Shown here: positions 2,161 through 64,000 of the stretch, piece after piece
How the letters are laid out: the number at the start of each line of letters is the position of its first letter
Position numbering within the stretch: position 1 is the stretch's first letter
DNA from: Candidatus Levyibacteriota bacterium
GTDB lineage: Bacteria; Patescibacteriota; Microgenomatia; Levybacterales; UBA12049
Direction of reading: 5' to 3'
Assembly (NCBI GenBank): GCA_016182185.1
Contig: JACOXU010000001.1
Coordinates: 530,915-594,914 of the forward strand
DNA: 64,000 nt
Program-made: the position numbers and the translations under genes
The notes under the pieces: model-generated
The model's input: only the letters and a program-made list of their open reading frames with translations
Told to the model about the DNA's origin: nothing
Database searches by the model: none

Positions 2161-2243
2161 TAAATCCTAATTTCTAAACAATTTTCCAAATTTCAAATCC
2201 CAAATTTTAGATCAATTAGGTTAATTAGGTCAATTAGAAATTT
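2161..2243. repeat. repeated intergenic element, copy 1 (overlaps the sodX stop codon)
   Basis: The 3' core aaatcccaaattttagatcaattaggttaattaggtcaattagaaatt is about 96 percent identical to 48411..48458. The upstream part shares the ctaatttctaaa / aaatcctaa / caaatcccaa blocks with 48361..48410. It contains the internal triple direct repeat aattaggt. Confidence 0.7.
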
Positions 2244-2520
2244 TAAATATCACTTTCCCAATTATATCTTTCTTATCTACCCATCCGATTTTTTTACTAT
2301 CTAGGCTATCTCTTCTATTATCTCCTCTTAAGAAATATTTATCTCCTTTTTTTTTCATAATTCTTTTAATATAAAATTTATTATTAAATTTGAAAATTAC
2401 CACATCTCTAATCCTTGGCTTGAAAAAAATAAAAGGAAGCGAACTTACCAAAACGCTTTGATTTTCTTTTAAAAGGGTGCCCATGCTGTGGCCTTTTATT
2501 TTAAATTTTGTCAGAAGCAT
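2230..2520 (-). CDS. sodX: nickel-type superoxide dismutase maturation protease SodX (signal peptidase S26 family)
   Basis: 96 aa. KGHSMGTL (Ser nucleophile box) and RGDNRRDSLDS (signal-peptidase box D-like). Sits immediately downstream of and co-oriented with the NiSOD gene, the canonical sodN-sodX arrangement. Confidence 0.8.
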   Translation of the reverse strand: MLLTKFKIKGHSMGTLLKENQSVLVSSLPFIFFKPRIRDVVIFKFNNKFYIKRIMKKKGDKYFLRGDNRRDSLDSKKIGWVDKKDIIGKVIFKISN

Positions 2521-3027
2521 TTATTTATGTGTGACAATTTCACCTTCTGTGGGATAACCTGAGGAAACACGTACGGGTGTTAAATTTTTAGTTTTATAAA
2601 ATATTTCGGCGATCTCCATTACTGTTTCGGTCATTTCTTCGCAGGAAGAAATATCGATAGTTTGTCGTGTTTTTATGGAAAGACTAACTGCTTTTTCCAT
2701 TAGACCCTTAAGCTTGGGAAAACTTCTGAAATGTTCTCCTTTAAAATAATCATTTTCTAAAGTTCCAAGTTCCTCCTCAATCAACTCTCCATGTTTTTCT
2801 TTGACATGAGTTAGCCTTGAAAGCTGGGAAATGATCTTCTTCCTTTCTTCGAAATCCGGCTCATCTTTTGAGGACTTCAAATCATTAAGCATTTGAGTCA
2901 TGCGAAGAACTGTATGGGCCGCCATTTGAGCATTATGCGGATCATAAATCCCACATGGAATATCGCAATGCGCAAATACATCTTGGGTAGGCAATAAATT
3001 TAATATGTAAAAAAAGATTTTTTTCAT
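2521..3027 (-). CDS. sodN: nickel superoxide dismutase precursor SodN
   Basis: A 19-aa leader (MKKIFFYILNLLPTQDVFA) is followed directly by HCDIPCGIYDP, the Ni-hook motif His-Cys-x-x-Pro-Cys-Gly-x-Tyr that becomes the mature N-terminus. Size is 168 aa with helical-bundle-type composition. Confidence 0.9.
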   Translation of the reverse strand: MKKIFFYILNLLPTQDVFAHCDIPCGIYDPHNAQMAAHTVLRMTQMLNDLKSSKDEPDFEERKKIISQLSRLTHVKEKHGELIEEELGTLENDYFKGEHFRSFPKLKGLMEKAVSLSIKTRQTIDISSCEEMTETVMEIAEIFYKTKNLTPVRVSSGYPTEGEIVTHK

Positions 3028-4056: not shown

Positions 4057-5967
4057 TTAAAAGAAAAGATATCTAGCACGCGTGGAAGTAACTGTGGATT
4101 GAGCTGAGGATTGATTACCGGAAGTATCATAAGCAATAACATTTATTGTGTAAGTAACATCTGATTGTCTCGGCACTTTCCATTGACAACTATACGAAGA
4201 GATTAGATCAGTACATTTTAATCTACCATTTATATAGAACTCGACTTTTTTAATACCTATGTTATCAGAAGCAGAAGCTATAATCGTTATTCTTTTGCCC
4301 CTCTGAATGCTACTACCATTAATTGGGTATGTAATTACAATAGTCGGTTTTATATTATCGATGGGTGTCTGCGTGGGTGTTGGACCGGAAGATGGAACAA
4401 CGCTAGGAATTGGAGTAGGTGTTGGGGTTGGAACTCTAGTTGGTGTTGGAGTAGGAGCCTTAGTTGGAGTTGGAATTGCTGTGGGAACAGAAGTTAAAGT
4501 AGGAAAACCAGTTGTCGGAGAGGGTATAACCGTTACAGCAAATTCGAAAGCGCCAATATCAGGAGCGCTTCCAGAAAAATTATCGTTATAACCTGGCAAA
4601 ACTACGCCCTTATCTATTAAAGGGCTTCCTGTTTGCAGTCTAAAATTAGAATCCCAACCAAAATTTGAAGTACTTATGCCATTTTTTTCTTGATTAGTAC
4701 TCGAGGAAAAATCGGTTATTGAACCGTATGTGGAACCTGCCCACTTGACAAAACGGGTTGTATCGGAGGTACGCAAGGCATCATAGTTAGCAGTACCCGT
4801 CGGAGCTTCTCCGGTTTCAATAACATACCTACTTGCATAAATAGCGTTATTCCTGAAATTCACATTGCTCAACCCTCCACCATTTGTTTGTTTTGCACCG
4901 TCTGCTACTTCACTTCCTGCAAAAAAACTATTGTGATAAACACGAACTTCCCCTACAGAACCATCTCCCATCTTAAACATTGCCGCACCTAATCCAAAAC
5001 GTTCAATTGGTTCGGAAATTACATTTCTGAATATCGTCAGAGGACCCGTAAGTGCGGGAGTAAATGCTATTCCTATCAGGCATCTTTTTATAGAGTTGTA
5101 TCTAACAATATTATTCTGATTTCCTCCTTCTGTCTGGATGCCATCATCGGCGCAATCGCTTATCGTATTATTTTCAATAATAGTATCTTTATTGAAGGAT
5201 CCATAAGCTACATCTTCCGGCTCTCCTCCAATACCATCATAACCACCGGTAATTGTGTTATTGGCAAAATGATGGCTGCCACCGGCAAAAAGAGCTGTAT
5301 TTTTTACCCAAATGCCATTTCCTCCGCCAGGTAAATTACCTGGAATGTCGGCTCTTCTTGTAATAACACTATTTAATACCTTAAGCCTCATGCCGCCTCC
5401 CCAAGATGCGATACCGGCTCTATATTGATCATCAATATCTGCACAATTGTAATCCTGAACGATTACATTATCTACGGTAACATCATTAGCAGTTTCAATT
5501 TTTATTCCTGCTTCATCAGATCTTTTAACTCCTATTCCTTTTATGGTTACCCCTGAAGATGTTACGTATATACCATTGGAATTATTACAGCCTCCATCAA
5601 TCCATACCTGGCCGTCTCCGAAATTTTGTAAAGTTAATGATTTATCAATATTTACCGTTTCATTATAAGTTCCTGTATGAATTGAGATCGTATCTCCATT
5701 TGCAGCCGCACTCACTGCAGATGATATATTTGAAAATCCTCCTGTCCCAACTATAAGAGTATTACCGCCTACAGCTTCGGGGTTAAAAATTTGCGTGTTT
5801 TGTATAAAAAATGGAGAGACAATAACAACAAGTGCAACAATAATTATTAAATATTTTGTTACTTTATCAAGAGATCTAAATGTCTCCCACAAAGACCTTA
5901 GCGGATTTTCCTTTTCTAATTTTTTATCTTGCTCTGAAGACGAATTGACAGTAAGTATTTTCACCAT
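4057..5967 (-). CDS. cell-surface right-handed parallel beta-helix (pectate-lyase fold) protein with PT-rich linker and C-terminal Ig-like domain
   Basis: N-terminal signal anchor. GTGGFSNISSAVSAAANGDTISIHTGTYNETVNIDKSLTL is a typical beta-helix start. Contains NxxG/IxxN-type repeats, a Pro/Thr-rich spacer (PTPTKAPTPTPTRVPTPTPTPIP) and a C-terminal beta-sandwich. Confidence 0.6.
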   Translation of the reverse strand: MVKILTVNSSSEQDKKLEKENPLRSLWETFRSLDKVTKYLIIIVALVVIVSPFFIQNTQIFNPEAVGGNTLIVGTGGFSNISSAVSAAANGDTISIHTGTYNETVNIDKSLTLQNFGDGQVWIDGGCNNSNGIYVTSSGVTIKGIGVKRSDEAGIKIETANDVTVDNVIVQDYNCADIDDQYRAGIASWGGGMRLKVLNSVITRRADIPGNLPGGGNGIWVKNTALFAGGSHHFANNTITGGYDGIGGEPEDVAYGSFNKDTIIENNTISDCADDGIQTEGGNQNNIVRYNSIKRCLIGIAFTPALTGPLTIFRNVISEPIERFGLGAAMFKMGDGSVGEVRVYHNSFFAGSEVADGAKQTNGGGLSNVNFRNNAIYASRYVIETGEAPTGTANYDALRTSDTTRFVKWAGSTYGSITDFSSSTNQEKNGISTSNFGWDSNFRLQTGSPLIDKGVVLPGYNDNFSGSAPDIGAFEFAVTVIPSPTTGFPTLTSVPTAIPTPTKAPTPTPTRVPTPTPTPIPSVVPSSGPTPTQTPIDNIKPTIVITYPINGSSIQRGKRITIIASASDNIGIKKVEFYINGRLKCTDLISSYSCQWKVPRQSDVTYTINVIAYDTSGNQSSAQSTVTSTRARYLFF

Positions 5968-8329: not shown

Positions 8330-10630
8330 TTGATGTACGATAATATTATGGATAAAAAACTGATTGTTTGGTTCAAAGATGTTGATAAAAACGATATTGG
8401 ACTTGTGGGGGGAAAAGGCGCAAATTTGGGAGAGATGACCAAATCCGGTTTTCCAGTTCCTCAGGGATTTATTGTAACCTCAGAAGCTTATTATCAGTTT
8501 CTAAAAGAAAATGATTTGAGTCAAAAAATAAAAGATGTTCTTGAAAAAGTAAATTACGAAGACTCTAACGACCTAAATAGAGCTTCTCAGGAAGCAAAAA
8601 ATCTAATTATTCAAGGCAATATTTCTGAAGAGCTGAAAAATGAAGTAATTAATTCTTATAAAAAACTGATTGAAGAATTTCAGGGGGAGCTAGTTGCCGT
8701 CAGATCTTCTGCCACTGCCGAAGACTTGCCTAATGCTTCATTTGCGGGGCAACAGGAAACATTTTTAAACGTGAAAGGCGAGAAAAATTTATTGCAGAAA
8801 TTAAAAGAAGCTTGGGCATCTTTATTTGACGGGCGTGCTATTTTCTATAGACATGAAAACAGATTTGATCATTTCAAAGTAGGAATTGCGATTCCAGTTC
8901 AGAAAATGGTTGAGTCGGATGCCTCAGGCATTATGTTTACTCTTGATCCTGTTACAAATGATGATTCCAAAATTGTCATTGAGGCGATCTTCGGACTAGG
9001 AGAACTCATTGTCCAAGGAGCAGTAACCCCTGATCATTATGAGGTGGCCAAGGAATCAATGAATATTGCCAATAAAAAAATTTCGACTCAAACAGTACAA
9101 CTTATTAAAGAAGGTGACGTTGATAAAGAAGTCCAGATCGAGACCGAAAAGGGAAATTTACAGAAAATAACTGATGGACAGATTCTTAAACTGGCAGAAT
9201 TGGGGAAAAAGCTTGAAGAACATTATCAATTTCCTCAGGATAGTGAATGGGCTATAGAAAAAAATAATGTTTACCTGGTTCAAACACGACCAATAACTAC
9301 AATAAAATCTACCCAGGAAAAGAATGAAGAAGCATCTGAAAAAATAAATCTGACTGTAATTCTAAAGGGCGACCCGGCCAGCCCCGGAATCGCCTCAGGA
9401 CCTGTTAAAGTTCTTCAGAGCGCACAAGAGATTGACAAAGTAGTTGAAGGCGACGTTCTTGTCGCGCCCCAGACTAATCCTGATTTTGTTCCGGCTATGA
9501 AAAAGGCGGTCGCTATTGTTACAGACAAGGGCGGTCGAACTTCTCATGCGGCAATTGTCTCACGAGAAATCGGAATTCCGGCAGTTGTCGGGACAGCAGA
9601 AGCAACAGTAAAACTCAAGGAAGGCCTGGAGATTACTGTCAATGGCGCAACGGGCGAAATTTACGAGGGGTATTATAAGAAAAAAATAGATTCCCAAAAG
9701 ACAGAGTCGAATATTCAAACCAGAACAAAAGTTTATGTGAATTTGGGAGAACCAGAATTTGCAGACAAGATCGCAAAGCGTCATGTTGACGGAGTCGGAC
9801 TCTTAAGAGCAGAATTTATGATGGCAGGAATCGGAAAGCATCCCAAAAAATTTATCAATGAAGGCAAGCAAAATGAATTTATTGATAAACTTGCGGAGGG
9901 ACTTGAAAAATTCTGTCAAGTCTTCAATCCTCGTCCGGTTGTCTACAGAGCTTCGGATTTTAAGACTAATGAATACAGAAACCTTGAAGGAGGCTCTGAT
10001 TTTGAGCCAGAAGAACCAAATCCAATGCTTGGTTATAGAGGCGCTTATAGATATATAAAAGATCCGGATGTTTTCAAACTAGAACTTGAGGCAATCAAAA
10101 AGGTCAGAAACGAAAAAGGACTTAAAAATCTTTGGCTTATGATTCCCTTTGTCAGGACTGTCGATGAATTGATCAAGGTCAAAGAACTAGTTGAATCTTC
10201 AGATCTTAAAAGATCCCCGGATTTCAAACTCTGGATGATGGTGGAAATTCCCTCAAATGTAATTCTTCTTGAAGATTTTATAAAAGTCGGTGTCGATGGC
10301 GTGTCGGTTGGATCCAATGATTTAACCATGCTTGTCCTTGGAACTGATCGGGACAATAATCTGGTTGCCAAAGAATTTAATGAAGAAAACCAAGCAATTC
10401 TTTGGGCGCTTGAGAGAGTTGTTAAGACTACGCAGAAATACAATATTACCTCATCTCTTTGCGGACAGGCTGCCTCAACCTATCCTAGGCTCCTGGATAA
10501 ACTTGTTGATTGGGGCATAACCAGCGTCTCAGTTTCCCCTGATATGATAGACAAAACTCGGGAGCTAATTTCAGGCTTTGAAAAAGAATCAAATGGAAAT
10601 TTCTTCGGCAGATTATTTTCTAACACTTAA
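8330..10630 (+). CDS. ppsA: phosphoenolpyruvate synthase (pyruvate, water dikinase)
   Basis: 766 aa. GGKGANLGEM is the N-terminal ATP-grasp (PPDK_N) motif. GGRTSHAAIVSREIGIPAVVG is the phosphohistidine swivel domain. Ends with a C-terminal PEP-utilising TIM-barrel domain. Confidence 0.85.
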   Translation: MMYDNIMDKKLIVWFKDVDKNDIGLVGGKGANLGEMTKSGFPVPQGFIVTSEAYYQFLKENDLSQKIKDVLEKVNYEDSNDLNRASQEAKNLIIQGNISEELKNEVINSYKKLIEEFQGELVAVRSSATAEDLPNASFAGQQETFLNVKGEKNLLQKLKEAWASLFDGRAIFYRHENRFDHFKVGIAIPVQKMVESDASGIMFTLDPVTNDDSKIVIEAIFGLGELIVQGAVTPDHYEVAKESMNIANKKISTQTVQLIKEGDVDKEVQIETEKGNLQKITDGQILKLAELGKKLEEHYQFPQDSEWAIEKNNVYLVQTRPITTIKSTQEKNEEASEKINLTVILKGDPASPGIASGPVKVLQSAQEIDKVVEGDVLVAPQTNPDFVPAMKKAVAIVTDKGGRTSHAAIVSREIGIPAVVGTAEATVKLKEGLEITVNGATGEIYEGYYKKKIDSQKTESNIQTRTKVYVNLGEPEFADKIAKRHVDGVGLLRAEFMMAGIGKHPKKFINEGKQNEFIDKLAEGLEKFCQVFNPRPVVYRASDFKTNEYRNLEGGSDFEPEEPNPMLGYRGAYRYIKDPDVFKLELEAIKKVRNEKGLKNLWLMIPFVRTVDELIKVKELVESSDLKRSPDFKLWMMVEIPSNVILLEDFIKVGVDGVSVGSNDLTMLVLGTDRDNNLVAKEFNEENQAILWALERVVKTTQKYNITSSLCGQAASTYPRLLDKLVDWGITSVSVSPDMIDKTRELISGFEKESNGNFFGRLFSNT

Positions 10631-11862
10631 CTTGCGACATATTTAAGGATAAAAAGCGAATCTACAGAATCTACTCTTCCGTTTTTATCTACATCTGCCT
10701 GCGTTGCATTAATAGTATTTGATCCAGTTGAACATTTTGTTCCTGTTATTGATAGTTTTGCAACATAACGCTGAACTAAAAGAGCATCAACAGAGGTAAT
10801 CGATCCATCACAGTTTACATCTCCTCCGGTTGAAAAAAGAGCGCTGGTGCTATTTATGACCGCTCCACTTCCACAAGTATTGCTAGTTGGAGTACGCATA
10901 ATAAATTGATAGGTTCTCGTGGTTGGAAAAGCAATTTGTTTTGTACCAGAATTACCGCTTGCAAAAAATGCTTCGCCTGAACCGCTTGATGTGCATATAT
11001 AAGCACTCGGATAACCAGACGTGCTCCAGCTGATGGTTGACGTACAGGATGTACCTGAAATAACAAGACAGGGATTATGAGATATTCTAATACTTGCAGT
11101 AGGAACGGGTGTAGGAGTAGGTGTAGAAGTTGGGGTTGAAGCTATGTAGCTTACTGGGGTATCTATAGTTCCTCCAAGTTCTTGCGCCCAATACCAACCG
11201 AAGGTAGAATTGGGATTATATGCTCGGTAAAATCCAACAGCCGTGTAATTTGGGTTTAATAAATTTGCATTATGCCCTGGTGATCCTTTCCAAGCTTCAA
11301 GAGCCTCGGATCCTGTTTGAGACCCTGATGCCAAATTTTCTCCTCTCCATGTATTAAAAGTATATCCGAAATCGCTTTGTCTTTTAAAGGGATCGCGACC
11401 TAGCGAATCTGTATGTGAAAAATAATTTTTGGAAGCCATATCATTTGCCATCCACTTAGCAACCTCTGTTAATATTAGGGATGGTGTCAAAACAGATAAT
11501 CCTTTTTGCGCTCTGTAGTTATTGAAAAGTGCTAATAAATTTATAATTTCAGAGTCAACAGTATAATTCTGTGCTGGTGCGATTCCCGAACCAGAAACAA
11601 GCGATTTTGGAGCGATAGGCTGACTGCTTGAGGGAGCAACAGAGTAAGATGTGCCCACATTGGAAGTAATTGCCGCTTTCGGATTAAAAATTAAATATGT
11701 GCTTACAATTGATGGGGTTGCAACGGCAATAAGAATAATAGATACTATAAATAATCTGCTGAGCCCATCAAGAGAAAGAAACCATTCCCATATTAACTTG
11801 AATAAATTTCGTTGTCTGGAAGTTTTTTCGTGCTTGGAATCTATGGAAACAATTTTGGCCAT
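10627..11862 (-). CDS. membrane-anchored CAP/SCP (PR-1-like) domain protein with C-terminal type I dockerin
   Basis: Signal anchor. The CAP domain shows the C-terminal signature LEAWKGSPGHNANLLNPNYTAVGFY, with AQKGLSVL near its start. TPTSTPTPTPVPT linker. C-terminal double calcium-loop dockerin: DVNCDGSITSVDALLVQRYV ... DVDKNGRVDSVDSLFILKYV. Confidence 0.7.
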   Translation of the reverse strand: MAKIVSIDSKHEKTSRQRNLFKLIWEWFLSLDGLSRLFIVSIILIAVATPSIVSTYLIFNPKAAITSNVGTSYSVAPSSSQPIAPKSLVSGSGIAPAQNYTVDSEIINLLALFNNYRAQKGLSVLTPSLILTEVAKWMANDMASKNYFSHTDSLGRDPFKRQSDFGYTFNTWRGENLASGSQTGSEALEAWKGSPGHNANLLNPNYTAVGFYRAYNPNSTFGWYWAQELGGTIDTPVSYIASTPTSTPTPTPVPTASIRISHNPCLVISGTSCTSTISWSTSGYPSAYICTSSGSGEAFFASGNSGTKQIAFPTTRTYQFIMRTPTSNTCGSGAVINSTSALFSTGGDVNCDGSITSVDALLVQRYVAKLSITGTKCSTGSNTINATQADVDKNGRVDSVDSLFILKYVAS

Positions 11863-11950
11863 TTGTACTTAAATTAGTGTGGCTCAAAAAAAAATTAATG
11901 TCAAGTTAAGCTTGACAGCAGAATTAAAGAGTGTTAGCGTTTAATTATAG

Positions 11951-12445
11951 ATGAAGTTATTCAAATCTGCAGATAACTTTACCAAAATATTCGTTATTAC
12001 TGTGGTCCTGATTATCATCGCTACTCCGTTTATAGTCAGTCAATACCAAAATTCTAAACAGGAGGCAAAAGGTAATGATCCAGGTATTGTTACTGATGAA
12101 AATGGTTGTGTTTCAAAAGTCATCTTTAGCAATATTCCTATAAATCCCGGTCAGACAATAGAATACAGTCTCAATTATTGTCTTGATTATCCGGAAGGCG
12201 CATACATGGGTTGGGTATTTTGGCGACAGCAGCAAAGGGGTCCGACTAAATACCTGACACTGACTGTAACTTCTCCCACAGGATTAACATGGACTCAGAG
12301 AAATGATACGGGATCAGGCGTGGGCTGGTGGGACTATGTTGCAAATCCTAAAGGAGTCTGGAAATATTCTGTAAAAAGCGAGGGTGCAATAAAAACTATG
12401 TACGATATCAATTTAGCAGCCATAGGACGCGAAATTCCTCAATAA
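11951..12445 (+). CDS. small membrane-anchored exported protein (paralog of 12502..13011)
   Basis: 164 aa. N-terminus FKSADNFTKIFVITVVLIIIATPFIVSQYQN has the same anchor motif as three other proteins here. The extracellular domain is Trp/Gly-rich. Confidence 0.5.
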   Translation: MKLFKSADNFTKIFVITVVLIIIATPFIVSQYQNSKQEAKGNDPGIVTDENGCVSKVIFSNIPINPGQTIEYSLNYCLDYPEGAYMGWVFWRQQQRGPTKYLTLTVTSPTGLTWTQRNDTGSGVGWWDYVANPKGVWKYSVKSEGAIKTMYDINLAAIGREIPQ

Positions 12446-12501
12446 AACCTCTAAACCTTCTTGCTTGACAAATATCTTCTTTTTATCTAGTCTTAAATAA
12501 A

Positions 12502-13011
12502 ATGGCAGAAATTTTGTCAACCGGCTCACCTGAGGAGACCATGCAAAAAGAGGGATTTCTGAAATCCATCTCAGAGTCCTTCAAGTCTCTTGATCGTTTC
12601 ACCAAAGGATTTATATTTACAACTCTTTTATTAATAGTGGTTACCCCGTTTATAGTCAATCAATATTTAAATACTCTTCAGGAAGCAGCCGGAACCGGAA
12701 AGGATAATCTAGTCACCGCGATATCTGTTGCTGCTAATTCAGGCGGAAGTGTCACTTTTAATGTAACCAGATCAATACCATACGACAAAGAAACAATCTG
12801 GGTCACTAATCAATGCTGGAATAAAGATGACAAGTTAGTCCAGGATCAAGACGGTGCAGTTGCCTGGGGCACAACTCAGAGTCTTACCGGTACAACATCC
12901 CCACTTCCCACTGCAGGAGGTGTTAGGTGCACCGCCTATGTAACTCTACGACCCTGGCAAGACAAACCTTTAGGTGATAGTATTATTAATTACACTCCTG
13001 ACAGTCAATAG
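12502..13011 (+). CDS. small membrane-anchored exported protein (paralog of 11951..12445)
   Basis: 169 aa. FKSLDRFTKGFIFTTLLLIVVTPFIVNQYLN anchor motif. Tandem with its paralog. Confidence 0.5.
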   Translation: MAEILSTGSPEETMQKEGFLKSISESFKSLDRFTKGFIFTTLLLIVVTPFIVNQYLNTLQEAAGTGKDNLVTAISVAANSGGSVTFNVTRSIPYDKETIWVTNQCWNKDDKLVQDQDGAVAWGTTQSLTGTTSPLPTAGGVRCTAYVTLRPWQDKPLGDSIINYTPDSQ

Positions 13012-14250: not shown

Positions 14251-14919
14251 TTATTTTTTTCCTAAATAAAATACAAAGAAATAGCCGTTGGCCGCCCCGC
14301 AACCGAAATTCCATTTTGGGTCAAGCAAGTTTTCTCTATGCCCCGCTGTTGATTTAGCCCATCCCTCATTGATTGCGTATTCTGGCGGTTGCTTAGCGCT
14401 TGACTGGAAAATAACCTCTCCCATTGCATTAAATTCAGCTTGAGATGAAAAAAATTTATTAAAACCTGCATGATTATCAAGGCTTCCATGCGCAATTAAT
14501 TCATCTAATCTTTTCAGTGCAATCTGGCACAAACTTTCACTCGATGCTAAAGGCGAAACTCCATTTGCGTTTCTGAAGGCATTTACCGCGGTTAATAAAC
14601 TTGATTCACTCTGAGGTGCGCTTGTCGGAACAACTGTTGGAAAAGGGGGTGGGGCTTGAGTCGGAAAAATGATTTGAGGAGTAGGCATTGGAGTAATTAT
14701 TTTTATCGTAGGGGCTGGCGTAACTGGAATAAGTGTGGGAGAAGATTTAATTTCTGATTTTGCGATTATTAGATTTTTTTCTAAATTTTCTTCCTGAGCA
14801 AAAACCGAAACCACCGAAAAAACAATAATTAATAGGGCAGCTGAGGTAATCTTGGGGAATTTTAAGAGGGAAAATTTTGTTTTTTGAAGCAACTTTAGTA
14901 ATTTATCTTTCTCCATCAA
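14251..14919 (-). CDS. secreted CAP/SCP-like (YkwD-type) domain protein
   Basis: Signal peptide and a PT-rich spacer (PTIKIITPMPTPQIIFPTQAPPPFPTVVPT). The CAP core LLTAVNAFRNANGVSPL...GHRENLLDPKWNFGCG. Confidence 0.6.
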   Translation of the reverse strand: MMEKDKLLKLLQKTKFSLLKFPKITSAALLIIVFSVVSVFAQEENLEKNLIIAKSEIKSSPTLIPVTPAPTIKIITPMPTPQIIFPTQAPPPFPTVVPTSAPQSESSLLTAVNAFRNANGVSPLASSESLCQIALKRLDELIAHGSLDNHAGFNKFFSSQAEFNAMGEVIFQSSAKQPPEYAINEGWAKSTAGHRENLLDPKWNFGCGAANGYFFVFYLGKK

Positions 14920-44331: not shown

Positions 44332-44937
44332 TTATACCAGAGGCTCCGTTCCCGGTCTTTTGAAAAATGCAATTACTTCGTCATCTGATCTTTTTATCGA
44401 CTCTACTTCTGAAAAACCGAGTTCCGAAAGTACCTTACCTGTCCAAGTTAGCCTAGCTGCTTCCTCAGGCCCTAACCCTTCTTGGAGTAATTTTTGGAAT
44501 TCCTGGTAATTATCTGAACCCCATTCATTTCCTTCAGTCAAAATCCATTTTGCTTCAAATCTTACGACAGGATAACCCTCATTTTTGAAATGATTTAAGG
44601 CAAAAACCAGAAAATTTCTGGCAAAAAAATCAGGATGCCTTTCTCCGGTTTGTTTTCTGGTGTAAATATCCGCACTAGCAGTTTTTCCATGAACATTTGC
44701 CTGCATGGTAAATGCCGGCTCATCCTCGTCATATATTCTTATCCAAGCGGTGTTGCTTCTTTGAACCATGTCTGCCATAACTTTTCTCCCGGAACCTGTT
44801 TCAATCCTTCCTTTTCTAAAATGTGATTCTTTTTCATGTAGATTTAAGCCGTACTTACCCCGAACAAAAGGATAAGGGACCAACGGACGATTTGATTCCT
44901 GGGGTTTTGAAACTTCCTTTGATTCTTCTCCATCCAT
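44332..44937 (-). CDS. unknown-family protein, paralog A of a three-member local family
   Basis: 201 aa. Shares with 44979..45521 and 46708..47292: YPY[VI]xGKxG near the N-terminus, TGERHPDxFARxFLxFA, and [DP]EEAA+xTWTGKxxxELGFSE[VI]E near the C-terminus. The start codon lies 6 nt after a TATAAT. Confidence 0.5.
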   Translation of the reverse strand: MDGEESKEVSKPQESNRPLVPYPFVRGKYGLNLHEKESHFRKGRIETGSGRKVMADMVQRSNTAWIRIYDEDEPAFTMQANVHGKTASADIYTRKQTGERHPDFFARNFLVFALNHFKNEGYPVVRFEAKWILTEGNEWGSDNYQEFQKLLQEGLGPEEAARLTWTGKVLSELGFSEVESIKRSDDEVIAFFKRPGTEPLV

Positions 44938-44958
44938 GGGGCAATTATATCAGAAGAG
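44938..44958 (-). promoter_or_regulatory. repeated 21-nt promoter element, copy 1 (gene sense CTCTTCTGATATAATTGCCCC, extended -10)
   Basis: Plus-strand ggggcaattatatcagaagag. Near-identical copies at 45561..45582 and 46000..46020. TATAAT is 6 nt from the ATG of paralog A. Confidence 0.5.
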
Positions 44959-44978
44959 CGGAAGGGAATTTAAAAAAT

Positions 44979-45521
44979 TTATCCCTGATCAGGTTTTTTG
45001 AAAACCACCCTTAAACCTCCACTTTCATCTTCTGCCATGCTTTCAATTTCTGTAAATCCGAATTCTCCTGCTAGCCTACCTGTCCACGTAGCTTTAGCAG
45101 CATCTTCAGGATCAATTCCTTTCTTGAGCATTCTTGAGTATTGACTGTAGTTAGTAGAGGCGAATTTATCAAGGCTTGGTATCCAATATGAAGAGTATGT
45201 GTTTATCTCATATCCATTGCTCAAAAAGTATTCATATGCGAAAATTAAAAATCTTCTTGCAAATAAATCCGGGTGTCTTTCTCCCGTTATGTATCTTCGG
45301 GTGTGGACAGCTGCTATAAAAGTGTCTTCAACAACTTTAGCAGACACATGATATCCACTAAATTCTTCATCTTCTATCTCAATTGAATCTCTTCTGATAT
45401 CATAATGCAGAAGACTTCCGGATCCGCCTTTTGTTATGCTCCTTATATTAACAGGTAAGTCTTTAAAAGGGATCCCATACTTACCCTTAACATAAGGATA
45501 ACCAACTTTGGTTTCAACCAT
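44979..45521 (-). CDS. unknown-family protein, paralog B
   Basis: 180 aa. MVETKVGYPYVKGKYG ... GGSGS ... ITGERHPDLFARRFLIFA ... DPEDAAKATWTGRLAGEFGFTEIE ... FKKPD. A proximal TATAAT lies 8 nt before the ATG. Confidence 0.5.
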   Translation of the reverse strand: MVETKVGYPYVKGKYGIPFKDLPVNIRSITKGGSGSLLHYDIRRDSIEIEDEEFSGYHVSAKVVEDTFIAAVHTRRYITGERHPDLFARRFLIFAYEYFLSNGYEINTYSSYWIPSLDKFASTNYSQYSRMLKKGIDPEDAAKATWTGRLAGEFGFTEIESMAEDESGGLRVVFKKPDQG

Positions 45522-45560
45522 AGAGAAGGATTATAGATCCGAAAAGGGGAAATATCAAAT

Positions 45561-45582
45561 CGGGGCAATTATATCAGAAGAG
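45561..45582 (-). promoter_or_regulatory. repeated 21-nt promoter element, copy 2
   Basis: Plus-strand cggggcaattatatcagaagag, between the cupin stop and the paralog B start. Confidence 0.45.
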
Positions 45583-45589
45583 GATTATT

Positions 45590-45970
45590 TTATTCTTTTG
45601 GTTCTAGCTTAATTGCGTTTGCGGAAGTTGTGCCGGGGACATTAAATTCAAATAATTTCATTTCTCCTTGATATTCATATTCTCCTCCATCAGGAATAAC
45701 AAAAAGGCTTCCCACTTTAACCTCGTGAGCAACTCCATTTAAAGTAAACATTCCTGTTCCTTCTCTTACATAATAGCTCCTCGTTGCACCAACCATTCTT
45801 GTTAACGGATGCCTACCATGAACATCGACACTTAAAGCGCTATAGCCTAATCCATCTTCAGGCTTCACATAATGATCGCCTGAAAATCCTTCTCTATCAA
45901 AATGCTCCGTCTTATCAAAAGAGATTTTTCTCGGGTGGGGTATTGACTTAGAACCTTCGGCTTCGCTCAT
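45590..45970 (-). CDS. cupin-domain protein
   Basis: Start taken at Met-13 of the track ORF (MSEAEGS...) because gcTATAATtcattcATG places a -10 box 6 nt upstream. The upstream 12 codons of the track ORF would run through that promoter. The cupin beta-barrel region is VDVHGRHPLTRMVGATRSYYVREGTGMFTLNGVAHEVKVGSLFVIPDG. Confidence 0.55.
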   Translation of the reverse strand: MSEAEGSKSIPHPRKISFDKTEHFDREGFSGDHYVKPEDGLGYSALSVDVHGRHPLTRMVGATRSYYVREGTGMFTLNGVAHEVKVGSLFVIPDGGEYEYQGEMKLFEFNVPGTTSANAIKLEPKE

Positions 45971-45999
45971 GAATGAATTATAGCACAAGCACACAAAAT

Positions 46000-46020
46000 G
46001 AGGCAATTATATCAGAAGAA
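46000..46020 (-). promoter_or_regulatory. repeated 21-nt promoter element, copy 3
   Basis: Plus-strand gaggcaattatatcagaagaa, immediately after the toxin gene stop. Confidence 0.45.
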
Positions 46021-46383
46021 TTATCTATTTTTGGCTCCTCTTAGCGATGTATATTTTCCATAAAGTGAATTTCGGGTACTTCTGCTAAGAAGTGCATTGA
46101 GATTTTTGTCCAGCTTCTCAGATGCAAGTTTTTGAGAAACGCCTATAACCCCGCTTTCTTCACTTCTTTCAGCTAATTTTTTGAAATGATTAACATTATA
46201 AGTCACTATTAGTCTTTTCTGTTTACAGGCAATATCATATACCTCTCTGTCTAGGACCCCGCCTTTATTCAAATCCAATTTAATATGCTTTAAATTGTGC
46301 CTACTGTTAGTTCTTGGAAGTAAATTTTTAGAGTACACACCTTCGTCCAGAAGTAGAGAATGCTTATGAGGCTTGCGAGACAT
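46021..46383 (-). CDS. DUF5615-type PIN-like (Mut7-C-like) putative toxin
   Basis: 120 aa. LLLDEGV...LLPRT...HNLKHIKLDL ... KRLIVTYNVNHFKKLA matches the DUF5615 pattern. A 20-nt overlap with the upstream DUF433 gene is typical of TA coupling. Confidence 0.5.
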   Translation of the reverse strand: MSRKPHKHSLLLDEGVYSKNLLPRTNSRHNLKHIKLDLNKGGVLDREVYDIACKQKRLIVTYNVNHFKKLAERSEESGVIGVSQKLASEKLDKNLNALLSRSTRNSLYGKYTSLRGAKNR

Positions 46384-46582
46384 GATTATTTATTATTTGA
46401 GCGCCTTCTTCCACAACTTTTTTAATTATTTCTACGGACAACTGTGGATACAACTCATTAATCGCTTCCGGAGAAAATCCGTCATTGAGTAGAAAAAATA
46501 TTTTTCTTGCAGGAATCCTAGTTCCTTTTATTACAGCTTCTCCTCCAAGTATTTCTCTGTCTGATATTATATATTTCTTCAT
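46364..46582 (-). CDS. DUF433 family putative antitoxin
   Basis: 72 aa. IISDREILGGEAVIKGTRIPARKIFFLLNDGFSPEAINELYPQLSVEIIKKVVE is the DUF433 consensus (ISDPxILGGKPVIKGTRIP...). Confidence 0.7.
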   Translation of the reverse strand: MKKYIISDREILGGEAVIKGTRIPARKIFFLLNDGFSPEAINELYPQLSVEIIKKVVEEGAQIINNHVSQAS

Positions 46583-46617
46583 AATTTTAGTTTATTTTAA
46601 TAAGCGTAGCTTGTCAA
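46583..46617 (-). promoter_or_regulatory. promoter of the DUF433/DUF5615 pair (TTGACA-17 nt-TAAACT, 6 nt before ATG)
   Basis: Gene-sense ccaTTGACAagctacgcttattaaaaTAAACTaaaattATG. A further TGATATAAT sits 35 nt upstream (plus 46636..46644). Confidence 0.4.
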
Positions 46618-46707
46618 TGGACTCAATGGAGTAAGATTATATCATAACTAATCAATAACTAATATGTAGAGCTTTGAATATTATTTTGGGGGAGATTTTG
46701 AAAACAA

Positions 46708-47292
46708 TTAAGTTTGATTTGGTTTTCTAAATATTGCGGTTGTAGCTAGCTCGCCATCGGGAGTTTCTTCAGCTCCTATCTCTTCTAATTTTATTTCAGA
46801 ATAACCAAGCTCCGCAAATAGTTTTCCTGTCCATGTTTCTTTTGCAGCCCTAACAGGATCTCCATGAACTGACATTTCATCCTGAAAAATTTGTAGATTA
46901 ATAGAATTTGGCGCCCAAGTACCTTTGCATCCAGAAATAAAAATATTATTATCTGATAAGTATGTTAAGGCAAAAACAATAAATTTCTTTGCATACATGT
47001 CAGGATGTACATCTTGAGGATTGTCTTCATATACATCTAAAGGAGATGTTCGAGTTCTTATATTGAAATTTACAATTTCACTCACGACTTGAACCGACAT
47101 AAATCTATCAGGATAACCAACATCTCTTACAGAGAGCATATCGCTGCCAACTGTATATTGTAATTCAGATCCAGACCCACCTCTAATAACACCGGTACAT
47201 TTGCCTTTGGTTCTATACCTTTCGATTATTGCCTCAAGAGATATTCCTTTTTTGCCTTCAATATAAGGATAGTTTCCTTCAACTTCAACCAT
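46708..47292 (-). CDS. unknown-family protein, paralog C
   Basis: 194 aa. MVEVEGNYPYIEGKKG ... GGSGS ... QDVHPDMYAKKFIVFA ... DPVRAAKETWTGKLFAELGYSEIK ... FRKPN. Confidence 0.5.
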   Translation of the reverse strand: MVEVEGNYPYIEGKKGISLEAIIERYRTKGKCTGVIRGGSGSELQYTVGSDMLSVRDVGYPDRFMSVQVVSEIVNFNIRTRTSPLDVYEDNPQDVHPDMYAKKFIVFALTYLSDNNIFISGCKGTWAPNSINLQIFQDEMSVHGDPVRAAKETWTGKLFAELGYSEIKLEEIGAEETPDGELATTAIFRKPNQT

Positions 47293-59560: not shown

Positions 59561-60913
59561 ATGACTAAAGAAAATCAAGAACTCTGGAAAGCCATTTTGG
59601 GAGAAATCGAAACAGAAGTATCAAGGGCAATTTTTTTAACCCTTTTTAAACACACTTTTCTTATTTCTTTTGAAAACGGAGTAATGACTATTGCTGCCTC
59701 ATCCGTAATGATCGTCGATCTTCTGCAAAAAAGATATTATCAAATCATAAAAAAGACCGTTGATAAGCATACTGGTCTTAGCGTAAAAATAATTTTTGTT
59801 CCCAAAACTATTTTCCCTGAGATAAAAACTGATGATAAAGATGGACCGCTTTTTGCCGGAGAAGAGAAAAGCACAATAATCGGGCATCTACCGAGAGTAC
59901 GTAAGGAATACACCTTTCAAACTATGGCTGTCTCATCAAGTAATCAGCTTGCTTATGTCAGCGCGCAGACTGTTGCTAAAAAAATTGGTACAGCGTATAA
60001 CCCTCTTTTTATCTATGGGCCGGTTGGAGTAGGAAAAACGCACCTTATACACGCTATTGCAAACAAGGTGTTTGAAGAGTCTCAAGATAAGAAAATTTTT
60101 TATATAACCAGCGAGGGTTTTACAAATGAAGTCGTAGAGGCTATAAGAACAAACGATACTGCAAGAATGAAGAAAAAATTTAGAAACGTAGATATTTTAG
60201 CTATTGATGATGTTCAATTTGTGGCAGGAAAAGAAAGAGTTCAGGAGGAATTATTTCACACCTTCAACACCCTAATAGATAAGGGCGCCCAGGTTGTGCT
60301 TTCTTCGGATAGGCCCCCATCCGAAATAAAAAAACTTGAAAAGAGACTTTCTTCTCGCTTCTCAGGCGGCCTAACAGTCGATATAGAGCCTCCGGATTTT
60401 GAATTAAGAACGGCAATTTTACTTATAAAAGCCAAGAAGTATGATTTTCCGCTAACGATTGATGCGGCAAAAAAAATTGCCGAACACTCACAAGACGCAA
60501 GGAAACTCGAGGGAATTCTATTGCGAATAATGACCGAAGCCCAATCAATCGAGGGGGAATTGTCAAACAATATTATAGAAAAGGTTTTATATAACAATAA
60601 TAAAACTGCTCTTAGTTATTATCACCCAGACGAGATAATAAATAACGTCTGCTCCTTCTATAAAATAAAACCAACCCAAATTAAAGGGGTTAAAAGAGAC
60701 GCCCTTTTGGTTCGGGCAAGGCAAATAGCAATGTATATTTTAAGATCCAGGCTTAATCTTTCATATGTTGAAATAGGAAACATACTCGGCGGAAGAGATC
60801 ACACGACAATTATGCACGGTGTTGAGAAAGTAGAGGGGCTCCTCTCGGGGGAACTGTTTTCGGATGAGGTCAATAAAATAATAAGCACTACTGGGGGAAA
60901 TCTTGTGGATTAA
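59561..60913 (+). CDS. dnaA: chromosomal replication initiator protein DnaA
   Basis: AAA+ Walker A GPVGVGKTH, sensor motifs, and the C-terminal DNA-binding domain (ARQIAMYILRSRLNLSYVEIGNILGGRDHTTIMH). Confidence 0.95.
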   Translation: MTKENQELWKAILGEIETEVSRAIFLTLFKHTFLISFENGVMTIAASSVMIVDLLQKRYYQIIKKTVDKHTGLSVKIIFVPKTIFPEIKTDDKDGPLFAGEEKSTIIGHLPRVRKEYTFQTMAVSSSNQLAYVSAQTVAKKIGTAYNPLFIYGPVGVGKTHLIHAIANKVFEESQDKKIFYITSEGFTNEVVEAIRTNDTARMKKKFRNVDILAIDDVQFVAGKERVQEELFHTFNTLIDKGAQVVLSSDRPPSEIKKLEKRLSSRFSGGLTVDIEPPDFELRTAILLIKAKKYDFPLTIDAAKKIAEHSQDARKLEGILLRIMTEAQSIEGELSNNIIEKVLYNNNKTALSYYHPDEIINNVCSFYKIKPTQIKGVKRDALLVRARQIAMYILRSRLNLSYVEIGNILGGRDHTTIMHGVEKVEGLLSGELFSDEVNKIISTTGGNLVD

Positions 60914-61060
60914 AAGCCCCCCCGCCCCCTCCTTATTTTCCCCCAACCATTTCCACATTTTTATAAACATCTTTTCCACAAAAAAACTACACTGGCAGTC
61001 TTGCTTTTTTCCACTTTTCCCTATAAACTACTACAACTACAAATTTAAATATATTAGTAA
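60914..61060. promoter_or_regulatory. dnaA-dnaN intergenic region with DnaA-box-like TTTTCCACA repeats and an unusual C-rich tract
   Basis: tttccacat, ttttccacaaaa and ttttccactttt (TTWTNCACA-like) occur within 80 nt. Preceded by cccccccgccccctcc and followed by AT-rich sequence. tgtggatta (reverse box) sits at the dnaA stop. Confidence 0.45.
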
Positions 61061-62176
61061 ATGAGAATTCTGCTTCTGTCTGAAAATATTAATAAAAAAT
61101 TACCATTTGTAAGCCATGCTGTTTCAAGCAGGTCGCAACTTCCGATACTTTCTAATTTTCTTCTAAGGTCTCAAAAGGGGAAGTTTTACATATGCGCTAC
61201 CGACCTTGAAATAGGAATAGAGGAAAACATTCCAGCAAACATTGAAGAAGATGGGGAGATAACTGTTCCAGCAAGAGTTTTTTTTGAATTTATCTCAGGA
61301 ATTCAAAAAGGGAAAATTCTCCTTTACACCAAAGAAACGAGCTTATTTTTGGAGTCAGATGGGATCAAAACCGTCTTTCAGACTATGCCACCAGGGGACT
61401 TCCCCAAACTATACGAAGACAAGGGCGGGAAACAGGGAACCTTAAAGAAGGATGTTGTTGAAAAGAATTTTGCAAAAGTTGTTTTTGCGGCAAGCCAGGA
61501 TAACGAGAGACCGGCCCTATCGGGGGTTTTGTTTAAAAAAGAAAAAAGAGGAAGTTTTTCTGTGGTTGCAACCGATGGGTACAGGCTTTCTTTAAAAAGA
61601 GACGTCTCGGTCGTTGAGGAAGAAGAGTCGTCTGACGGGGTTGGGTTTCTTGCTCCCGTAAGATTAATAAAAGAATTAATATCCCTAAAAAACAATGGTG
61701 ATATTGGAATATATTCTTCAAAGAAAAACAATCAAATAATGTTTTTTCAAGATGAAACCGTTTTGGTAGGAAGGTTAATAGAGGCAGAGTTTCCTAACTA
61801 TGAAAAAATAATTCCGAGTGATTTTTCATCAAGAACTGTTTTGGACCGAAGAGAATTGCATCAAGCTGTAAAATCATCTTCAATTTTTGCCCGCGAGACA
61901 ACAAACATTATTAAATTTTCTCTTGAAAAAAACAAAATAACCCTTTCTGCAAGCGCTCCGTCTTTGGGCGAAAGCAGGATTGATGTTGGTGCAAAGACCG
62001 AAGGAGAGGAAAACGAAATAGCCTTCAATGCCAGATATTTACTGGAGCTATTGGGAAACATAGAAGAAGAGGAAGTTGTTTTTGAGATGAGCGGTCCGCT
62101 TAACCCCGGAGTTTTTAAAATACCAGAGGATCCCAACTTTCTCCATATCATCATGCCCATTAGAGTGCAGGGGTGA
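61061..62176 (+). CDS. dnaN: DNA polymerase III beta sliding clamp
   Basis: 371 aa, three-domain clamp pattern, immediately after dnaA. MRILLLSENINKKLPFVSHAV... is a typical DnaN start. Confidence 0.9.
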   Translation: MRILLLSENINKKLPFVSHAVSSRSQLPILSNFLLRSQKGKFYICATDLEIGIEENIPANIEEDGEITVPARVFFEFISGIQKGKILLYTKETSLFLESDGIKTVFQTMPPGDFPKLYEDKGGKQGTLKKDVVEKNFAKVVFAASQDNERPALSGVLFKKEKRGSFSVVATDGYRLSLKRDVSVVEEEESSDGVGFLAPVRLIKELISLKNNGDIGIYSSKKNNQIMFFQDETVLVGRLIEAEFPNYEKIIPSDFSSRTVLDRRELHQAVKSSSIFARETTNIIKFSLEKNKITLSASAPSLGESRIDVGAKTEGEENEIAFNARYLLELLGNIEEEEVVFEMSGPLNPGVFKIPEDPNFLHIIMPIRVQG

Positions 62177-62709: not shown

Positions 62710-64000
62710 TTATCTACACATACCTAGATCTTCTGGATTCAGCCAGCCGGCGCCTCCATTTTCCCTTTCTGGATTCTTTCCGATATTTATATGAACATGG
62801 GGGAAAGAGGTCGACGCTATTGTTGTCACTATGTCTCCTGATTTATAAGTATTGCCATCGCCCGGTGGGTTAACAGACGGTCCGTTAAGATGAAGTAGGC
62901 GAAGATCCCAAATGTCGCTTCCAACAGTTGCCTTGAATACGTGGCCATAACCACCTCCGCTTCCCGGGGGGACAGCGTAGCTCGTTACATACTCCCAAGA
63001 AGCTGTTTGGTTGTTAAGAGTTGGGAGGTAAACAGGTGTTCCGGGTGAAGCCGGAACATCGATTGAGTGAGCTCTTCTCTGATCATTTGTCGCTTCAATG
63101 GTTCCCTGAAAACATACCCCATAAGAACGGCCGCAGTGCCCTCTGTCTATTGGCTCAGGCCCTGCGCAGGCGGACAGATTGTATTGCGGATCAGACATAA
63201 AGGAACCGCACGAAATAAAAGGAGTGATGTTTTGTCCTCCCTTAATGGGGCAAGAGGATGCAAGAGATGTTGCCTGACAGTTTATATAGCTATTCCAAAC
63301 ATCCTCTCCGTAATTATATGGTCCTTCAGAACAGCCACCTGGTCCATAACGAAGACAGCCATAATACCTTCTGGCAATTTCATATACGGTTGTCTGATCC
63401 CAAGGGCCATCTCCATTAATGCTTTGCTTGTCGTTTTTTACTTTAAATGCCGCTGCGGTAATCGAATCTCTTATGCTATAAATTCTAAGTATGTTCGCTG
63501 GGGCCATGTTATTAGGGGGATCTATGGTAGTTTTTACTCCATCTTTATCAAATAAAGTTTTCATCTCAACTGCGTTTCTGGTAAATACTCCAGCAAACGT
63601 TCCAGGGGTAAACTGCATTATTCCATAGGCGACTCCGCTTGAAACCGCATCGTAATCATTTTCTAAATAAGCCGGATCTGTTCTTGTAAAAGCGCCTTCT
63701 GATTCAACGCGCATTATGCCTGCAACAACCGCAGGCGGCACGCCTACCCGGTTTGAAATATCAGCAACAACAGCAGCCATTTGCGGGTTTCCAAACATTA
63801 CCTCAACCGTTGAGCTTCCACCTCTATAAAAAACACATGAAGATATATCTCCTGAGCCCGATCCTCCTCCTGGCGGTTGGGATCCTCCAGTTGATCCACC
63901 TTGAGAATCAAGCGCGACCCCGCTTCCCCCGCCAAGCAACATAAATAAGGTAAAGAGAATAATTAAAACTATGACAATAATAATGGCGGCGGGAATCCAA
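62710..64000 (-). CDS. membrane-anchored cell-wall hydrolase: lytic transglycosylase (SLT) domain plus C-terminal M23-like domain; 5' end beyond window
   Basis: AVVAGIMRVESEGAF ... AYGIMQFTPGTF (SLT catalytic Glu-Ser and the MQ motif). The C-terminal PHVHINIG and other His/Asp residues look M23/LytM-like. The reading frame stays open upstream of the track ATG through a hydrophobic helix (…IPAAIIIVIVLIILFTLF-MLLGGG) to the window edge, so the track start is not the true start. Confidence 0.6.
   Translation of the reverse strand, partial: WIPAAIIIVIVLIILFTLFMLLGGGSGVALDSQGGSTGGSQPPGGGSGSGDISSCVFYRGGSSTVEVMFGNPQMAAVVADISNRVGVPPAVVAGIMRVESEGAFTRTDPAYLENDYDAVSSGVAYGIMQFTPGTFAGVFTRNAVEMKTLFDKDGVKTTIDPPNNMAPANILRIYSIRDSITAAAFKVKNDKQSINGDGPWDQTTVYEIARRYYGCLRYGPGGCSEGPYNYGEDVWNSYINCQATSLASSCPIKGGQNITPFISCGSFMSDPQYNLSACAGPEPIDRGHCGRSYGVCFQGTIEATNDQRRAHSIDVPASPGTPVYLPTLNNQTASWEYVTSYAVPPGSGGGYGHVFKATVGSDIWDLRLLHLNGPSVNPPGDGNTYKSGDIVTTIASTSFPHVHINIGKNPERENGGAGWLNPEDLGMCR

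Follow-up and report, generated by a model that had tools for sequence, protein, structure and literature searches.

A 64-kb stretch of DNA from a Candidatus Levybacteria genome (contig JACOXU010000001.1, positions 530,915 to 594,914; hereafter the window) encodes four proteins that share an N-terminal leader of ~65 residues, which we refer to as the module; the remainder of each protein is its passenger. Judged by its sequence, the leader is probably a Levybacteria-specific extended signal sequence of the Sec type, cleaved after a terminal Ala or Gly. It defines a family that is strictly N-terminal, has fixed internal spacing, is carried by extracellular passengers only, and ends at a position equivalent to the cleavage sites of orthologs.

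The four proteins are the CAP-dockerin protein P1 (10627-11862, minus strand), the beta-helix/Big_7 protein P2 (4057-5967, minus strand), the 164-aa protein P3 (11951-12445, plus strand), and the 169-aa protein P4 (12502-13011, plus strand). They match exactly the database entries MBI2031538.1, MBI2031534.1, MBI2031539.1, and MBI2031540.1, respectively (Candidatus Levybacteria, Microgenomates, candidate phyla radiation [CPR]; 617-kb contig), and each is a singleton when clustered at 90% identity. Labels such as P0041 denote database family members or homologs, and labels L0xx denote member-bearing contig loci that we examined. The window has a GC content of ~0.38. The features of the four proteins, with E values from a hidden Markov model (HMM) of the module, are as follows.

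11674-11862, minus strand: P1 leader module, residues 1-63, ending ...IFNPKA; HMM E=8.5e-26
10636-11535, minus strand: P1 passenger, CAP domain and type I dockerin
11182-11535, minus strand: P1 CAP domain, residues 110-227; Pfam PF00188, E=5.7e-20
10636-10824, minus strand: P1 type I dockerin, residues 347-409; Pfam PF00404, E=9.3e-13
5773-5967, minus strand: P2 leader module, residues 1-65, ending ...IFNPEA; HMM E=5.7e-25
4060-5772, minus strand: P2 passenger, right-handed beta-helix, Pro/Thr linker, and Big_7 Ig domain (Pfam, NCBIfam)
4138-4347, minus strand: P2 Big_7 Ig domain, residues 541-610
11951-12067, plus strand: P3 short-form leader, residues 1-39, MKLFKSADNFTK...KQEA; HMM positions 25-64, E=5e-18
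12068-12442, plus strand: P3 passenger, no match in Pfam or NCBIfam
12502-12687, plus strand: P4 leader module, residues 1-62, ending ...NTLQEA; HMM E=3.9e-28
12688-13008, plus strand: P4 passenger, predicted small all-beta domain from about residue 72, no match in Pfam or NCBIfam

A common N-terminal motif in these four proteins had been noticed in a first-pass annotation, and the sequences are exactly as quoted there. In a six-frame translation of the window, the pattern F.S.D..[ST][KR] was found four times, each time at the head of one of P1 to P4 and at no other open reading frame (ORF) start. BLASTP alignments among the four proteins were limited to the first ~65 residues, with nothing credible downstream (P1/P2, residues 1-63 versus 1-65, E=5e-07; P1/P4, E=7e-10; P3/P4, E=9e-14). 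The annotation placed the onset of similarity just before the transmembrane (TM) helix, and this needs correction: in three of the four proteins it begins at Met1 (M-[AV]-[KE]-I-[LV]-[ST]). The range given for the motif, 10627-13011, also left out P2 at 4057-5967. P3 and P4 had been called small tandem paralogs; their leaders are indeed related, as the P3/P4 alignment indicates, but their C-terminal parts have no detectable similarity. P3 has only the distal 39 residues of the leader and lacks the N-terminal extension, as does its ortholog P0041, and by sequence this short form looks like a plain signal peptide. The P3 gene is separated by 88 nt from the divergently transcribed CAP gene encoding P1.

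A profile built from the four window N-termini was searched against 1.84 billion cluster representatives. It matched 209 protein clusters at E<=1e-3, a lower bound because only four sequences went into the profile, and 81 clusters at E<=1e-10; matches from outside the source genome reached E=8e-24. All 150 listed matches begin at residues 1-15, in proteins of 47 to 1627 aa, and many of the database family proteins are fragments from short contigs. Word-index protein searches with module alignments returned 0 and 4 matches, that index being ill-suited to short hydrophobic queries, and an exhaustive HMM search was used. An HMM built from 134 members and run against the six-frame ORFs of the window recovered exactly P1 to P4 (E from 4e-28 to 5e-18), with no fifth match at E<10. 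The membrane proteins that it passed over include YidC, UppP, a P-type ATPase, and an O-antigen ligase, and the leader is therefore not generic TM composition.

Leader anatomy was established on a MAFFT alignment of 152 N-termini; counts centered on the terminal residue refer to 150 sequences, and spacing and motif statistics refer to the 143 that have both the conserved Pro and a terminal Ala or Gly. The leader starts with M (137/146), then A (73), P (46), V (11), or T (9), then [K/R/E], I (118/144), [L/I/V], [S/T], [F/Y/V/I], and [G/N]. A variable linker of low conservation follows. The juxtamembrane part reads K-[EQ]-N-x-[FL]-K-x-[LI]-W(113/149)-x-x-F(123/150)-x-S(122/151)-L-D(129/152)-[KR]-F(131/152)-T-[KR](145/152) and leads into the hydrophobic stretch x-F-I-[IV]-T-x-x-L-[IL]-x-x-x-T(133/152)-P(145/152)-[FY]-I-V. 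The tail is x-N-Y-[QL]-x-F-x-[Q/P/S]-x-[A/G], in which Q (64), P (39), and S (22) are the common third-last residues and the last one, at -1, is always small (A in 133 and G in 17 of 150). Past this residue, relative entropy drops from ~3 bits to <0.5 within two or three columns. Proline is absent from +1 and +2 (0/150 each) and occupies each of the positions from +3 to +12 in 8 to 23 of the 150 sequences. In 140/143 members, the final A comes 27 residues after the K of F-T-K, and the same distance separates R36, which aligns with that K, from A63 in P1 and K35 from A62 in P4.

Lys and Arg average 3.0 in the 15 residues before the helix versus 1.24 after it, and the orientation is therefore N-in. 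The n-region is unusually long (median 35 residues), and the 17-residue hydrophobic core has a mean Kyte-Doolittle hydropathy of 2.59. AlphaFold2 (AF2), run on the module alignment (mean predicted local distance difference test score [pLDDT] 73), left residues 1-19 disordered and predicted an 11-residue helix at 20-30 (LFKLIWEWFLS), a break at L-D, and a 25-residue helix at 33-57 that runs through T-P and is followed by coil (58-66), six residues of it before A. The predicted helix end, six residues before A, is at a normal c-region length. An AF2 model of P4 from a three-sequence alignment (mean pLDDT 65) had seven strands, a passenger pLDDT of 70-86, and a dip at junction residues 59-69. The leader has the tripartite n-h-c layout of Sec/type I signal peptidase (SPase I) substrates at the extreme N-terminus, positive inside; its -1 residue is small, and Pro is excluded from +1.

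The end of the module can be compared with ordinary leaders on the same passenger. The P2 beta-helix has 116 homologs at E<=1e-10, and an HMM check of 117 beta-helix sequences (114 retrieved homologs plus P0002, P0060, and P0109) found the module in only five. Ordinary signal peptides head several of the module-less homologs, some of which are labeled Dehalococcoidia, and these peptides stop 0-1 residue short of the NTLIVGxGGYxTI strand (...NDLAAA|STVIVGTGGY, ...DHASA|ATLTVGAGGY, ...QPAGA|ATLVVGNGGY, and ...RGGSA|NTLVVGAGGY). In module-bearing orthologs (...IFNPEA|VGGNTLIVGTGGF, ...IFNPKA|AGGNTLIVGSGGY, and ...DVRQHA|AVNEIIVGSGGY), the module A lies 2-3 residues ahead of the first beta-helix strand; in P2, the beta-helix start (VGG-NTLIVGTGGF) is three residues past the conserved A. 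More broadly, folded domains begin 2-5 residues past A in beta-helix and some CAP members. The invariant A accordingly holds the position of a normal leader's -1 residue, which we consider the strongest argument that the module replaces a signal peptide and ends like one. The first-pass annotation had stated that the motif is not a Sec signal peptide; the n-region, helix, and short-tail anatomy, the invariant small -1 residue, the lack of Pro at +1 and +2, and Ala-X-Ala leaders that end at the same place in orthologs from other phyla all speak against that statement.

The closest beta-helix ortholog without the module, P0174 (556 aa, 402-kb JGI contig), has a 66% identical passenger and a different, long leader (...SKKSLLLIAGTLLLLVSIPLTVYFAQQRLNLNSKAAA|NTLIVG) of similar layout, with I-P in the helix, a long tail, and AAA. 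This leader is not matched by the HMM and may be a sister of the module that a related lineage uses as its own extended leader.

Leader copies inside the source genome are 31-41% identical, whereas orthologs across metagenome-assembled genomes (MAGs) are 74-88% identical, which indicates that the copies are old and have been kept by selection. The module is better conserved than the passenger in diverged pairs (77% versus 59%, 76% versus 65%, 82% versus 54%, and 81% versus 40% identity). The extreme cases are P0047/P0032, with leaders 98% and passengers 34% identical, and another pair with 86% leader identity and only 22 alignable passenger residues. Locus L016 (8726-14071) has two members side by side, one a CarboxypepD_reg protein and the other a 1356-aa subtilase; their leaders match at 75% identity over 71 residues, and their passengers are unrelated. 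This pair and P0047/P0032 suggest duplication or recombination that shifts the leader between genes. As a rule, the sequence of an ordinary signal peptide changes faster than that of the mature protein. The module evolves more slowly than its passengers, the reverse of the usual pattern, which argues for sequence-specific recognition.

Passengers were surveyed with Pfam in the 80 members of at least 250 aa. They carried 58 families, all of extracellular types, of which the following were counted.

Big_7: 19/80 members
CAP: 16/80 members
Dockerin_1: 16/80 members
Peptidase_S8 (subtilase): 9/80 members
TSP3: 8/80 members
Fervidolysin N-prodomain: 7/80 members
Laminin_G_3 (LamG): 5/80 members

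Further passenger families were CBM96, GH99, GH44, PA14, FG-GAP, NHL, and peptidase M11; no autotransporter domains were found among the 80 passengers. Subtilase passengers with a prodomain have the layout of pre-pro-enzymes, with the module as the "pre" part. Among the 119 members of at least 150 aa, a second hydrophobic segment was present in only two or three, and a genuine LPXTG plus TM signal in none (0/119). Two members have a C-terminal TM anchor, which fits a cleaved leader. The module marks some exported proteins of the window and others use ordinary signal peptides. A second CAP-domain protein (14251-14919, minus strand) has such an ordinary leader (...VVSVFA|QEE) and no match to the module HMM, so the same passenger type bears either kind of leader within one genome.

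Taxonomic distribution was read from source labels, where given. The clusters of P0006, P0037, and P0152 are labeled Candidatus Levybacteria, as is the window, and two clusters are labeled "Patescibacteria group." The label "Planctomycetota" occurs once (P0144), on a 3.1-kb contig that was probably mis-binned. A hand-made degenerate DNA pattern run on GTDB species representatives gave seven true and two chance matches; its estimated recall is ~12%, and it carries little information on prevalence. Five of the seven true matches lie in TPA_asm MAGs titled "uncultured Gammaproteobacteria" (L002, L003, L005, L007, and L009). These loci have a GC content of 0.32-0.40, and L005 and L009 have a Trx-TrxB-member arrangement in common with member locus L016, with TrxB 72% identical. 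Because of the low GC and this synteny, we distrust the Gammaproteobacteria titles; the evidence points to mislabeling or mis-binning behind both the Gammaproteobacteria and Planctomycetota titles. Where names exist, they are mostly Candidatus Levybacteria. The first-pass annotation had suggested a possible lineage-specific signal, an idea that would fall if the motif did not recur beyond the four proteins or reduced to generic TM composition. The idea withstands both checks: the leader recurs in 209 clusters, on many unrelated exported proteins and with mostly Levybacteria names, and the HMM matches only P1 to P4 in the window.

We propose that the first ~20-25 residues, with the start M-[AP]-[KRE]-I-[LIV]-[ST]-[FYV]-[GN], form a predicted cytoplasmic, disordered extension. 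It would be followed by a short amphipathic juxtamembrane helix ([LI]-W-x-x-F-x-S-L-D-[KR]-F-T-[KR]) and then by a hydrophobic helix (T...L...T-P-[FY]-I-V) that would insert N-in/C-out and drive the passenger through SecYEG. An extended tail of about six residues ends in [QPS]-x-[A/G], and a signal peptidase cut after A/G would most likely free the passenger. The conserved extension and the polar helix face may contribute a step particular to this lineage, for example in targeting, timing, or choice of secretion site, as the extensions of ESPR and YSIRK/GXXS leaders do.

Cleavage after A/G is favored because conservation stops abruptly at an invariant small residue and Pro is excluded at +1, and because of the c-region geometry, the pre-pro subtilases, and the ortholog comparison. 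Several points weigh against it. The 150 sequences behind the statistics were chosen by a profile that reaches seven residues past A, which introduces some circularity at +1 to +3. Type I signal peptidase follows a (-3,-1) Ala-X-Ala rule (PMC9360617), and the module has Q (64), P (39), or N (5) at -3 in 108/150 sequences and a canonical residue there in few (S 22, T 7, A 4, V 3). The rule is therefore broken, and we file the leader not as a canonical Sec/SPase I member but only as working like one; ordinary leaders in the window (SYA|A, VNA|N, and VFA|Q) have S or V at -3 and obey the rule. At 25 residues, the predicted helix resembles a signal anchor more than a typical h-region, and with other anchors this rare, cleavage would release most members. 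Three features thus weaken the case for cleavage: Q/P at -3 (~70% of members), the length of the helix, and the absence of another anchor from most members. These same features would suit an uncleaved type II signal anchor, inserted via Sec or YidC, that is the sole tether and displays the passenger while its cytoplasmic extension and helix face bind a partner. We regard this as possible but clearly the less probable account. It would explain the length and high hydrophobicity of the helix, a -3 residue unfavorable for signal peptidase I, the near absence of other anchors in proteins that look like surface proteins of a probable episymbiont, and the strong conservation of the cytoplasmic part, which is easier to understand if that part is kept in the mature protein. 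An anchor, however, has no obvious use for an invariant A/G at the end of conservation or for the lack of Pro at +1 and +2, and the A falls where ortholog signal peptides have their cleavage site. Domains that begin 2-5 residues past A leave no room for a stalk, the subtilases have a pre-pro layout, and dockerin on 16/80 members implies a separate route of attachment.

An invariant -1 residue combined with a noncanonical -3 residue would also fit the first-pass annotation's own reading, a dedicated system in which a lineage-specific peptidase or sorting enzyme recognizes T-P...[QPS]-x-[A/G], possibly with the extension, as an N-terminal counterpart of sortase/LPXTG, exosortase/PEP-CTERM, or SipW-TasA. 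Conserved polar residues in the helix (T and T-P), fixed spacing, a module more conserved than its passengers, the tagging of only a subset of exported proteins, and the precedent of SipW for TasA (PMC10269814) would all agree with such a system. Nevertheless, no protease, sortase, or rhomboid recurs beside members in the window, its right flank, or about ten loci among L001-L020; a single sortase was seen 2.5 kb from a member, at L020 only, and the one S26 peptidase encoded in the window (2230-2520) belongs, as a SodX-type partner, to an adjacent nickel superoxide dismutase (Ni-SOD) gene. The observations would fit a general LepB with relaxed S3 specificity equally well, and we consider a dedicated enzyme improbable. 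Only slightly more credence goes to the wider notion that Levybacteria have an as yet unrecognized N-terminal sorting system and that the module tags its substrates; in such a system, a dedicated membrane peptidase or a targeting factor would read T-P...[QPS]-x-[A/G] and the extension. If that were true, the 200 or more tagged protein families would be the host-interaction surface proteome of the lineage. Finally, the segments are short and hydrophobic and the first profile came from four sequences, as would befit chance resemblance, generic TM-helix composition, or mere recent paralogy in one genome. We give this practically no credence: E values reach 1e-24 among 1.84 billion proteins, always at the N-terminus, the HMM skips every other membrane protein of the window, and the difference between within-genome and ortholog identities argues against recent paralogy.

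Several further observations were made around the members and elsewhere in the window. At 2230-3027 (minus strand), the Ni-SOD gene (HCDIPCG after a short leader) is followed by the small S26-family peptidase, a SodN/SodX maturation pair that was confirmed by Pfam Sod_Ni and Peptidase_S26 matches in L010 and is unrelated to the leader family. In L018 (7497-13343; a Levybacteria MAG) and L019 (7576-12426; a JGI contig whose member falls in a protein cluster labeled Levybacteria), a module-bearing gene adjoins rplA in the secE-nusG-rplK-rplA cluster; the one in L019 has rplA on one side and the downstream rplJ-rplL genes on the other. These two members have different passengers, one (1114 aa) of unknown type and the other (821 aa) with GH115_C. 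CTTGACA, a -35-like element, occurs 35-45 nt before the starts at 5967 (minus), 11862 (minus), 11951 (plus), 12502 (plus), and 15754 (minus), with no obvious Shine-Dalgarno sequence, which suggests very short mRNA leaders on these genes; it is not specific to the family because a nonmember gene also carries it. Past dnaA-dnaN (window positions 59561-62176), the right flank of the window (L013, 5867-14633) carries a type IV secretion-like cluster that follows dnaN immediately, beside the replication origin genes. Its genes include those for a VirB4/TraG-type ATPase, a TraC-like protein, and PrgI, and four for T4SS_pilin. One gene of the cluster (480 aa) has its 3' portion in the window, as the ORF at 62710-63942. 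At 44332-47292 (minus strand), three ORFs (44332-44937, 44979-45521, and 46708-47292; 180-201 aa) are paralogs, with common motifs that include YP[YF][VI].GK.G, HPD.[FY]A..F..FA, and TWTG[KR].

CPR/Patescibacteria are uncultivated and probably episymbiotic; what can be learned of their lifestyle comes chiefly from their surface proteins. A leader recognizable by HMM allows direct listing of the Levybacteria exported proteome, with its proteases, CAP and dockerin proteins, glycosidases, and adhesin-like repeats, and should help to improve the start sites and annotation of hundreds of genes whose products are now called "hypothetical." It also offers a testable case of conserved signal-peptide extensions outside model Proteobacteria and Firmicutes, and the Q/P at -3 raises the question of CPR signal peptidase specificity. 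A curated family could be built from the present alignment, since Pfam-A (2025) and NCBIfam 20.0 have no model for the module, as searched with full proteins at E<=1 and with 134 isolated modules at E<=10. The best library family was matched by 7/134 isolated modules, at E>=0.02, and PF13018 (ESPR), PF04650 (YSIRK), TIGR03715, and the Tat and prepilin models were not among the families reported. In the paper library searched, we found no account of the leader for Levybacteria, Microgenomates, or Patescibacteria.

Known classes of export signal were compared with the module by motif. No Tat signal (S/T-R-R-x-F-L-K) was present (0/143; any RR in the n-region, 5/143). The earlier exclusion of a lipobox and a prepilin signal holds: L-x-x-C was found in 0/143 (any Cys in the module and next six residues, 9/143), as was a type IV prepilin signal (class III, with G at -1 and E at +5, G-F-T-L-I-E-like), and it is [KR]-F-T-[KR] that precedes the helix. 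The module also does not fit a rhomboid-type motif, which has hydrophobic P4 and P2' residues, as its P4 is N/R/T/K and its P2' is T/G/S. The LPXTG or PEP-CTERM analogy of the first-pass annotation captures a short conserved tag with a TM helix on many unrelated surface proteins of one lineage. Those tags, however, are C-terminal and always come with a dedicated enzyme (sortase or exosortase), whereas the Levybacteria module is N-terminal and doubles as the export signal, with no such enzyme found beside the members examined; it behaves as an extended Sec-type leader and is closer in kind to ESPR or YSIRK. KxYKxGKxW (TIGR03715) is a conserved N-terminal extension that marks a special exported class, the accessory-Sec glycoproteins. 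The module is similar in tagging such a class by an N-terminal extension and differs in that TIGR03715 is absent from the matches of the 134 modules, no SecA2/SecY2 was seen near members, and the passengers are not serine-rich repeat proteins, which speaks against membership. SipW, the dedicated signal peptidase for TasA, sets a precedent for a secreted subset (TasA/TapA) whose cleavage site ill-suits the general enzyme (PMC10269814), but no SipW-like gene stands beside members, and the substrates here are hundreds of unrelated proteins rather than an operon-encoded pair.

The two closest parallels are conserved signal-peptide extensions. The YSIRK/GXXS motif (PF04650) of staphylococci and streptococci is a conserved sequence that spans the n- and h-regions of Sec signal peptides. 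It resembles the module in being confined to part of the surface proteins, and it directs septal secretion (PMC5962339, PMC11841062). The module is not a member of this class, having no PF04650 match and no LPXTG partner (0/119), and it has about double the length, with conservation that extends from Met1 up to the putative cleavage position. ESPR (PF13018) is a phylogenetically restricted, conserved extension of ~25 residues before a normal signal peptide that affects export kinetics, and it resembles the module in a leader of more than 50 residues, a restricted conserved extension ahead of a signal-peptide-like part, and large surface proteins as passengers (PMC8151025). Membership is again rejected, as PF13018 is unmatched by the modules and type V passengers are lacking: ESPR is found on type V/autotransporter passengers in proteobacteria, whereas the module has a CPR host and no autotransporters, its h- and c-regions are also conserved in sequence, and its -3 residue is Q or P. 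By analogy, and without homology to or membership in either class, ESPR and YSIRK/GXXS are the nearest analogs in kind of the Levybacteria leader.

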